Assembly: GCF_058153355.1 (NCBI RefSeq) | Contig: NZ_CM177019.1 | DNA: 64,000 nucleotides | Strand: one strand, 5' to 3' | Shown here: positions 15,971 to 17,057 of the stretch, piece by piece | Position numbering within the stretch: the first letter of the stretch is position 1 | Layout: each line of letters starts with the position of its first letter | The notes under the pieces: model-generated | What the model saw: only the letters and a program-made list of their open reading frames with translations | Database searches by the model: none | What the model was told of the DNA's origin: nothing | Made by a program: the position numbers and the translations under genes

Positions 15971-16008
15971 ACCGTAGCACGTCTTAAGCAAGAACGTGCT
16001 GCGGTTGG
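15971..16008 (+). repeat. ~38-bp dyad-symmetric repeat, copy 1
   Basis: aaccgtagcacgtcttaagcaagaacgtgctgcggttgg; second related copy at 17024-17057. Confidence 0.4.
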
Positions 16009-16011
16009 ATG

Positions 16012-16680
16012 CTATTTTTTCCCTGAAGCGGAAAACATTACTACAGTACCTTGAACCTTGGTTTTAACATTCTCGAAATGCTCTGAGAGTATATGTGTTA
16101 AGCCTTCTTCGGAATCTTTTGTGTTTGAAAAGATGCCTTTTTGATTGTAAATGCGCATCAGTTTTTGACCGAAGCTATTGTGCACAACTCCATCGCCAAG
16201 AATTGTGGCTCCGTATAGAGTTCCATCATCAGTTAAGGCCTGCGCCGCATTGCGTATTACACAGCTTTTTGTAGATATATTTCCTGGCAGGCAGTGAAGA
16301 AGGTAAAACATGGAAATGGAATCAAATTGACCATGTAACGCCGCGGGATAAGGTTCAAAAACATCATGGCTAATTTTATGTTTAATTTTTGATTCCCCAG
16401 CCCTTGTAGATGCCGCGTTCAGGCTAGCTTCGTTCAAATCCATTAAAGATATCAGACTACTCTCAGGTACGTGAGTAAGGTAAAACCCAGTTCCAACACC
16501 AATATCCAGATGGTTGTTACCTAAATGTTCCAGAAAGTGTGGAAGAAGGTGTTCCTTTGTAGGACATCCCCATGCAAGCCGATTTGATACTCCCAAAACC
16601 CACCAGTCATAAAGCTTTAGGGTAAGTGGTGTGTAAATTTTAGCCCCATCATCTGTGTTTTTTTTCATTAATTTCACCAT
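16012..16680 (-). CDS. Class I SAM-dependent methyltransferase, uncharacterised
   Basis: 222 aa; motif I-like HLDIGVGTGFY; Rossmann-fold methyltransferase spacing; no specific family recognised. Confidence 0.6.
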   Translation of the reverse strand: MVKLMKKNTDDGAKIYTPLTLKLYDWWVLGVSNRLAWGCPTKEHLLPHFLEHLGNNHLDIGVGTGFYLTHVPESSLISLMDLNEASLNAASTRAGESKIKHKISHDVFEPYPAALHGQFDSISMFYLLHCLPGNISTKSCVIRNAAQALTDDGTLYGATILGDGVVHNSFGQKLMRIYNQKGIFSNTKDSEEGLTHILSEHFENVKTKVQGTVVMFSASGKK

Positions 16681-16736
16681 ATTATAGTTTTATTTGTGAA
16701 TTAAATCAATTATGGCGATGAATTACAAGGGGTTAA

Positions 16737-17006
16737 ATGCTGCCGCAGCATAGCGATATTGAAATAGCCTGGTATGCTTCGATACAGCAGGAGCCGAATG
16801 GCTGGAAGACCGTCACCACACAGTTCTACATCCAGGAATTCAGTGAGCATATTGCGCCACTTCAGGATGCTGTAGATCTGGAGATCGCAACGGAGGAAGA
16901 AAACTCGTTGCTGGAAGCCTGGAAGAAGTATCGGGTGTTGCTGAACCGTGTTGATACATCAACTGCACCTGATATTGAGTGGCCGGAAGAACCAGACACA
17001 ATGTAA
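16737..17006 (+). pseudogene. Tail fibre assembly (Tfa) C-terminal remnant
   Basis: C-terminal ~50 aa ([48 protein letters not shown]) matches the conserved lambdoid Tfa C-terminus; the N-terminal part is unrelated. Confidence 0.5.
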
Positions 17007-17023
17007 GCGAAAAAGAAAAACCG

Positions 17024-17057
17024 CAGACACGACGTATGCAGGACGTGCTGCGGTTGG
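17024..17057 (+). repeat. ~38-bp dyad-symmetric repeat, copy 2
   Basis: aaccgcagacacgacgtatgcaggacgtgctgcggttgg; shares the acgtgctgcggttgg core with copy 1. Confidence 0.4.

Follow-up and report, generated by a model that had tools for sequence, protein, structure and literature searches.

Copies of a conserved lambdoid phage stem-loop bracket an accessory cassette at the attR-proximal end of a prophage remnant

Morons of lambdoid phages are reportedly units made of a promoter, a gene and a terminator. In T4-like phages, the stem-loops of PeSL (promoter-early stem-loop) elements are tested terminators that flank ORFans (Arbiol et al., 2010, PMC2839356), and the same study describes deletion and insertion of ORFans as well as circles that arise when one repeat recombines with another, in one case within the loop (PMC2839356). 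We analyzed a 64,000-nucleotide stretch of contig NZ_CM177019.1 (NCBI RefSeq assembly GCF_058153355.1; the window, at its full length), in which an earlier note made from the letters alone had pointed to two related palindromic repeats bracketing a methyltransferase gene and a remnant of a tail fibre assembly (tfa) gene. Both repeats prove to be paralogous copies of a stem-loop that is conserved in lambdoid phages, where it lies next to the tail-fibre genes and at the borders of accessory cassettes. With moderate confidence, we propose that these are terminator-type hairpins that end the late operon and double as short homology linkers for the exchange of cargo. We class the two copies as terminator-type linker hairpins at moron boundaries, an ordinary kind of element.

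Two paralogous copies of a conserved lambdoid stem-loop

The two copies (no strand assigned) are as follows.

15970-16006: hairpin copy 1, AACCGTAG...CTGCGGTT, with arms AACCGTAGCACGT and ACGTGCTGCGGTT around the loop CTTAAGCAAGA
17019-17055: hairpin copy 2, AACCGCAG...CTGCGGTT, with AACCGCAG, a bulged A and CACG before the loop and CGTGCTGCGGTT after it

The element is about 37-40 bp long, with a GC-rich stem of 11-13 bp, an optional one-base bulge and a loop of 11 nt. Each window copy has an 11-bp core stem plus two A-T pairs and a loop of 10-11 nt, with the bulged A in copy 2. That the copies are direct, related and about 1.05 kb apart was confirmed by a repeat search, which returned a direct repeat of 21 nt (15991-16011 and 17040-17060) with 90% identity and a spacing of 1049 bp. 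Each also folds as a hairpin, as had been claimed: the predicted RNA of copy 1 reached -24.8 kcal/mol (z-score -3.2) on the plus strand and -20.4 kcal/mol (z-score -2.5) on the minus strand, and that of copy 2 reached -22.1 kcal/mol (z-score -1.9) and -19.7 kcal/mol (z-score -3.3) respectively. The start first proposed for copy 2 (17024) leaves out the opening bases of its left arm, the true extent being 17019-17055. Within the window, the exact 15-mer ACGTGCTGCGGTTGG was restricted to 15994-16008 and 17043-17057, also when 2 mismatches were allowed; shuffled sequence gave a mean of 0.17 matches, and 2 matches were reached in 2 of 100 shuffles. Over the whole hairpin the copies are identical in 27 of 34 columns (79%, manual count), so that the misgiving that they might not align on careful comparison was not borne out.

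We then used a covariance model of the hairpin, trained on copies from other phages. It found exactly two matches in the window, at 15972-16004 (47.0 bits, E = 4e-8) and 17021-17053 (51.8 bits, E = 3e-9). In the 48.5-kb lambda genome it recovered a pair scoring 50.6 and 60.2 bits and no further copies. The earlier note's suggestion of a small repeat family is thereby upheld, with lambdoid phages as its carriers.

The position of the element is described with reference to the following features.

14053-15696, minus strand: ipaH
16012-16680, minus strand: ybcY-like gene for a class I S-adenosylmethionine (SAM)-dependent methyltransferase, an open reading frame (ORF) of 222 aa and the cargo gene of the bracketed cassette
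16737-17006, plus strand: tfaX-like remnant, an ORF corresponding to the C-terminal half of a tail fibre assembly gene
17054-17113, no strand assigned: conserved block R1 (ttggctggtgaactttcgatagtgcgagtattgaatgatttccagccgttaccgatttta), about 61 nt long, past the right-hand hairpin, from a four-way alignment

In lambda, CCGCAGAAACGTT...AACGTTCTGCGG (22573-22606) comes 14 nt past the tfa stop codon and a second copy lies at 24162-24195, the pair flanking the leftward gene ea47. The gene order in phage PhiR26_1 and in the K-12 prophage DLP12 is tfa, hairpin, ybcY on the minus strand and tfaX; K-12 has no second copy because its tfaX is truncated before the hairpin. HK97, which has no b region, shows the order tfa, hairpin, R1, annotated sib site, att and int, which places the hairpin at the meeting point of rightward late transcription and leftward transcription from the int side. 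The 14-nt distance between the tfa stop codon and CCGCAG was constant despite three unrelated spacer sequences, and the hairpin stood at the tail-fibre end of the prophage in every locus inspected. The window copies follow the same position rule, since CCGCAG of copy 2 begins 14 nt past the tfaX stop codon and copy 1 lies at the boundary between the ipaH module and ybcY, 5 nt past the ybcY stop codon on the minus strand. As a side observation, the DLP12 hairpin (NC_000913.3 582112-582144; 1613-1645 of our locus L205) has a G-to-A change in its right arm (AACATGCTGCGG) that breaks one plus-strand pair.

Block R1 is a sharp island of homology that always lies past the right-hand hairpin (lambda 24196-24256; HK97 20980-21039, or 2538-2597 of locus L326) and adjoins the annotated sib retroregulation site in HK97. 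The hairpin together with R1 was present in 199 phage records, among them lambda, HK97, mEp460, phage 21, many Stx phages, one Salmonella phage and one Citrobacter phage. It was likewise present in 5,241 of 5,426 complete genomes of E. coli, where the median was 2 places per genome (places not assigned to prophages individually). A hairpin-pattern scan of genome contigs was uninformative on taxonomic range: among the matches listed only those in E. albertii were relevant, the rest being chance palindromes of high-GC genomes.

These counts refute a genome-wide family of REP-like extragenic palindromes unrelated to the cassette, an idea to which we give next to no credence. The element is indeed GC-rich, palindromic and intergenic, but the 64 kb and the lambda genome contain 2 copies each, and hairpin plus R1 occupies a median of 2 places in an E. 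coli genome. The family is likewise not specific to ipaH or to Shigella, the hairpin being a post-tfa element of lambdoid phages, including lambda, HK97 and Stx phages. Nor are the copies a target-site duplication or the scar of a fresh duplication: 7 of 34 columns differ between them, whereas each shares 97-100% identity with the copies of its own subtype in other phages. Copy 2 occurs with the same flanks, and identical, in mEp460 and in prophage contigs, and the copy 1 subtype elsewhere follows an intact tfa (PhiR26_1, K-12 and at least about 90 prophage contigs among the matches listed).

Cassette boundaries and mosaic flanks

The cassette in the window consists of ybcY on the minus strand, tfaX and copy 2, a unit of 1049 bp. 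The ybcY-like product matched the Pfam families Methyltransf_12, Methyltransf_23, Methyltransf_25 and Methyltransf_11, and annotations elsewhere call the gene a class I SAM-dependent methyltransferase in related genome records, putative YbcY in PhiR26_1 and pseudogene ybcY in K-12 DLP12; the tfaX-like remnant is annotated elsewhere as an incomplete tail fiber assembly protein. In the multi-copy loci that we inspected, the copies were direct in every one. The cargo between them was ea47 (lambda), a 257-aa GIY-YIG protein (PF22945), ybcY-tfaX, or a GIY-YIG gene plus an EcoRII endonuclease and C5-methylase pair (PF00145, PF09019, PF09217). To the left of the first copy lies either the last late gene (tfa or a Pin-type invertase) or other cargo, such as ipaH with the small RNA (sRNA) CssrB described below, or an acyltransferase. 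The Pin-type invertase, identified from its N-terminal sequence, directly precedes the hairpin in some related prophages (L090, L128, L145).

Empty alleles of the same site were also present. In loci L151, L166 and L167, tfa is followed by one hairpin of the copy 1 subtype, ttggatg and then R1 directly, with no ybcY-tfaX, and L181 (empty) and L158 (occupied) form an allele pair behind a different left module. An arrangement with a lambda-type tfa end, a single hairpin and R1, free of ea47, was present as well. The copies therefore do delimit a cassette, as the earlier note had guessed, and the start of homology at the first base of copy 1 agrees: in a megablast search, the homology of thousands of E. 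coli genomes to the window begins at 15972.

Hairpin contexts were retrieved by two pattern- or protein-seeded scans of IMG/VR; the figures that follow apply to the matches listed and count contexts and not independent events, many loci being near-identical prophages. At least 73 distinct contexts, each with 60 nt or more of flank on either side, fell into 21 left and 7 right flank clusters, in 29 combinations. The left clusters are partly related and represent about 16 independent left classes, five of which were each paired with 2-3 different right classes. Different left flanks showed random-level identity to one another (0.24-0.26) up to their last 5 nt, which are A-rich, and identity between right flanks fell off about 5-7 nt past the hairpin. 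The breakpoints lie at the hairpin edges: the conserved unit is the hairpin with about 3 nt on its left and 4-7 nt on its right, and the flanks beyond are unrelated.

The hairpin is the sole sequence common to otherwise unrelated accessory modules. As their only shared homology it serves as the seam between them, and probably as a short homology linker. Its home, as its position shows, is the distal end of the late (tail-fibre) operon, facing leftward transcription from the side of att, int and the b region. Cassettes may then be inserted, lost or exchanged by homologous recombination at the hairpin, leaving direct copies on both sides. A homology of about 35-40 bp, which is that of the hairpin, is about the length usable by phage annealing recombinases, as in Red recombineering. 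The hairpin of L181 looks chimeric, with ACACGCC in its left half and TTAAGCAAGA in its right half; such hairpins hint that crossovers may have taken place inside the element. The mosaic flanks, the direct copies around cassettes and the empty and occupied alleles are likewise consistent with recombination at or within the hairpin.

The main rival, which we hold to be unlikely though worth serious weight, treats the hairpins as passive scars. They would be what lies 3' of two tfa genes, an ancestral intact one and the truncated tfaX, and a single illegitimate or unequal tfa-by-tfa event would have placed ybcY between the two tfa ends; the hairpins would have no part in recombination, and any terminator function would be incidental. 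The position of copy 2 at the canonical 14 nt past tfaX, the occurrence of the copy 1 subtype past an intact tfa elsewhere and the 270 bp of tfa homology that form the right part of the cassette all fit this account, as does the 79% identity of the copies, which would make them old paralogues. It accounts for ybcY-tfaX, but not for the cassettes with ea47, GIY-YIG or EcoRII, which are bracketed by direct copies with no tfa remnant before the second one, nor for the many unrelated left flanks (about 16) that abut the first base of the hairpin, and it leaves the chimeric-looking hairpins unexplained.

Sites of a dedicated recombinase or transposase, recognised as folded hairpins in the manner of the attC sites of integrons or of the subterminal hairpins in IS200/IS605 elements and serving site-specific or single-strand mobilisation, seem very improbable to us. 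The copies are imperfect palindromes with an extrahelical base, always direct and placed around single-gene cassettes, and occupied and empty alleles are sharply bounded 7 nt past the hairpin, all of which would suit such sites. However, the ORFs listed nearby, in the window or in the inspected loci, showed nothing like an integron integrase or TnpA (no dedicated search was made). The attC core is not matched either, as GTTRRRY fits copy 1 (GTTGGAT) and not copy 2 (GTTGGCT) and the left RYYYAAC is absent. Empty sites, moreover, keep the left subtype in the case of ybcY and the right subtype in the ea47-free lambda-type arrangement, unlike the products of a fixed crossover point. For the related suggestion that the repeats are protein-binding sites, no evidence of protein binding at the two copies was found.

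A bolder version of the linker idea appears rather doubtful to us. Here the locus would be an integron-like cargo platform, whose cassettes excise as circles with one hairpin and reinsert at resident hairpins, either by annealing of the Red/RecET type over about 35-40 bp or with the help of a hairpin-binding factor not yet recognised. If true, the platform would amount to a PeSL-type shuttle of lambda-like phages for virulence and defence genes. The cargo seen comprises effectors of the type III secretion system (ipaH with CssrB), restriction-modification systems, nucleases and methyltransferases.

On its left side the bracket adjoins the following RNA feature.

15824-16003, plus strand: CssrB (Chromosome-encoded Shigella sRNA B), Rfam RF02799 at 230.2 bits (gathering score 76), aligned over model positions 1-180 of 180 with E = 4e-52

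CssrB was detected as a Northern band of about 180 nt in S. flexneri 301, between SF2021 and SF2022 (Peng et al., 2011, PMC3071730); its 3' end was set by prediction of a rho-independent terminator and its 5' end was back-calculated (PMC3071730). Copy 1 is the 3' terminal stem-loop of CssrB and supplies the last 33 positions of the Rfam match, and copy 2 lies outside every Rfam family. The body of the sRNA (15824-15971, 148 nt) was found in 8 of the 5,426 E. coli genomes, the same ones that match the ipaH region, and the sequence from 15972 onward in more than 3,000 of them. With the body confined to genomes that match ipaH and the hairpin widespread, CssrB appears to be a junction product, in which the body of an ipaH module runs into a resident phage hairpin. 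The family description presents the hairpin as the sRNA's own terminator, whereas here it is a widespread phage element abutted by a body specific to Shigella and enteroinvasive E. coli (EIEC). The module of ipaH and the CssrB body is joined at the first base of copy 1, and under the linker reading CssrB would have taken over copy 1 as its 3' hairpin on the plus strand. The Rfam entry may accordingly be re-read, with a terminator hairpin borrowed from a phage and an sRNA that would be a by-product of cargo insertion. A weak promoter-like site at 15806-15834 (TTGATT, 17-nt spacer, TACTAT) would place the start of CssrB near 15841 and not at 15824. The prophage sRNAs Pas, AgvB and AsxR proved unrelated, being located elsewhere in the prophage, near Q and the lysis genes.

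Flanking U tracts and a proposed terminator-type role

Hairpin tails were read directly from the sequence, and the features concerned are these.

15964-15971, minus strand: A-rich left flank of copy 1 (aaaggaaa), read on the minus strand as UUUCCUUU past the hairpin, in the direction of ybcY
17010-17020, minus strand: A-run aaaaagaaaaa, read on the minus strand as UUUUUCUUUUU directly past copy 2
16681-16709, minus strand: promoter-like site of ybcY (TTGATT, 17-nt spacer, TATAAT), 10 of 12 positions, a pattern match from a consensus scan
17353-17415, plus strand: 3' fragment of tRNA-Ser (serU), the attR core, from a match to Escherichia phage SerU-LTIIb, where it is annotated as tRNA-Ser, and from tRNA-like Rfam fragments

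Stable GC-rich stem-loops lie 5-14 nt from the stop codons of ybcY and tfaX, as expected first of all of an intrinsic terminator. The earlier note had seen no clear T-run after either copy and concluded that neither is a classic terminator. The observation stands for the plus strand, where copy 2 has no U tract past its stem and the T6 run of copy 1 comes 10 nt downstream of the hairpin, but not for the minus strand. There, copy 2 has TTTTTCTTTTT (17020-17010) directly past its stem, its fold showing a hairpin and then a U tract, and copy 1 is followed by TTTCCTTT (15971-15964), a weak U tract. The conclusion itself was wrong for copy 2 on the minus strand, and copy 1 has served as the predicted terminator of CssrB (PMC3071730). 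Copy 2 lies about 300 bp from the end of the prophage, as the serU 3' fragment with the attR core is found there. With its TTTTTCTTTTT tail, it has the full canonical form of a leftward intrinsic terminator about 300 bp inside attR. A simple terminator scan, with its limits on loop size and bulge, called neither hairpin.

Across the family the U tract varies with the flank: the left flanks other than tfa end in A runs, which give 5-8 U within the 9 nt past the hairpin on the minus strand. At the RNA level the element would act as a hairpin of the terminator or 3'-end type that can work on either strand, the strength of termination presumably being set by the flank that supplies the U tract. 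It is likeliest that the hairpin protects or ends RNAs in a flank-dependent manner. Among 34 hairpin variants, compensatory double changes were seen in 2 of 11 pairs (C-G to T-A and C-G to A-T), and single stem changes were nearly all C-to-T and G-U-compatible in plus-strand RNA, which weakly suggests selection on the late-strand transcript. The promoter-like site of ybcY and the location of copy 1 at 5 nt past its stop codon give this unit the shape of a moron. A role as an RNase III site like sib was set aside on general knowledge, the stem having only 11-13 bp with a bulge.

Several points weigh against this combined reading of terminator and linker. On the side of exchange, the ybcY cassette contains a 270-bp tfa remnant, so that recombination within tfa and R1 could move it, and a crossover inside the hairpin would not by itself yield the empty allele that keeps 'ttggAtg'. 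As to termination, the stems are near-invariant and the support from covariation is thin, the search patterns having fixed much of the outer stem. The tfa-type left flank, a common one, gives no U tract on either strand, and we found no mapped transcript 3' end at either hairpin. Late transcription in lambda is Q-antiterminated, so that a terminator there would be ignored in lytic growth. The 3' end of CssrB is a predicted and not a measured one (PMC3071730). In K-12, a Rho termination region was reported at 582001(-) (Adams et al., 2021, supplementary file 2), about 110 nt past the hairpin (582112-582144), which is a copy with a tfa flank and no U tract; this suggests, at a low resolution of 800-nt windows, that leftward ybcY transcripts pass through the K-12 hairpin. 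The K-12 Term-seq list of the same study holds no 3' end at the DLP12 hairpin (Adams et al., 2021). The Rho region at 582001(-) is antisense to tfaD.

It seems improbable that copy 2 is chiefly the terminator of a leftward RNA of about 95 nt encoded by R1, with a -10-like TAAAAT at 17113-17108 and, beyond it, a body that runs into the hairpin and a U tract. In its favour, a promoter-like site (TTGAAT, 18-nt spacer, TAAAAT) is present at 17137-17108 on the minus strand, R1 conservation stops at TAAAAT, and a hairpin with U5CU5 is typical of sRNA 3' ends. But the -35 region is not kept in lambda, HK97 or L151, many copies with R1 have no U tract, and no Rfam match was obtained. RNAalifold, run on 21 variants and both strands, gave no convincing conserved fold in R1 beyond the hairpin. 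R1 also contains GCTGGTGA (17057-17064), one mismatch from the Chi octamer GCTGGTGG, 1 nt past the CTGCGGTT arm of copy 2 and 3 nt past CTGCGG; this Chi-like site is kept in R1 of lambda (ctGGCTGGTGAac), HK97 and many prophages.

The region as a whole belongs to a chromosome of the Shigella/EIEC type, in which it forms the end of a lambdoid prophage remnant nearest attR. Beyond the features above it includes the following genes.

11887-13299, plus strand: side tail fibre gene
13256-13873, plus strand: DUF4376 Tfa-like gene
downstream of the serU fragment, minus strand: zinT, msrQ and msrP

ARAGORN found no intact tRNA in the 64-kb window, serU being present as its 3' part only. At 13989-14010, where the DUF4376 Tfa-like gene and ipaH converge, lies another GC-rich hairpin that has a T run (GGAGGCCCGGGGGCGGGCCTCT GTTTTTCC), a different terminator-like element at the left end of the ipaH module. 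A match to Rfam IS009 (RF02111; 129 bits against a gathering score of 117) at 16760-16963 coincides with the tfaX remnant; IS009 is a transcribed pseudogene fragment with no evident structured RNA. Within the 3' end of ybcY, accttgaaccttggttttaac (16044-16068) resembles what we take to be the AAACCNNGGTTT core of the hix, gix and cix invertase crossover sites.

Comparison with known systems

In the literature we searched, which did not cover the classic lambda literature, we found no prior description of this hairpin as a recurrent boundary of lambdoid cargo, and nothing relevant on ea47 with a terminator or on exchangeable effector loci. The hairpin offers a searchable landmark for the boundaries of hotspots of cargo, effectors and defence genes beside tail-fibre genes. 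If exchange is indeed mediated by it, the hairpin would provide a concrete linker mechanism for the trade of lambdoid phages in virulence and defence cassettes; the linker idea has long been assumed in modular phage evolution and has seldom been tied to a specific sequence.

The element resembles REP and BIME sequences of E. coli in being an imperfect GC-rich palindrome past genes, and differs from them in its unrelated sequence, its median of 2 places instead of hundreds, and its location at the tail-fibre end of lambdoid prophages in the inspected loci. With intrinsic terminators, including bidirectional ones that separate convergent genes, it shares a GC-rich stem-loop right past stop codons with an A tract on one side and sometimes a T-rich stretch on the other. 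Unlike in these, the U tract is not the conserved part, many copies have none on either strand, and the K-12 data suggest read-through.

The closest analogue is PeSL. In both cases conserved stem-loops are repeated in a hyperplastic region around non-essential ORFs, and presence and absence alleles are joined at the repeat; PeSL stem-loops terminate, and a role as linkers for homologous recombination has been proposed for them. The lambdoid hairpin, however, has no attached conserved promoter (no sigma-70 promoter of the PeSL kind was found, and the promoter-like site of ybcY lies 670 bp away), and it is therefore not a PeSL. A genome also has 1-3 copies of it, at a single locus (tfa to att), against dozens, and its carriers are temperate siphoviruses with Red/RecET-type recombination, against phages of the T4 type. 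The resemblance to morons lies in the ybcY unit, with its promoter-like site and a hairpin past its stop codon, placed between the late genes and att, and in ea47, EcoRII and ipaH as typical cargo; unlike in morons, the same hairpin recurs here at the boundaries.

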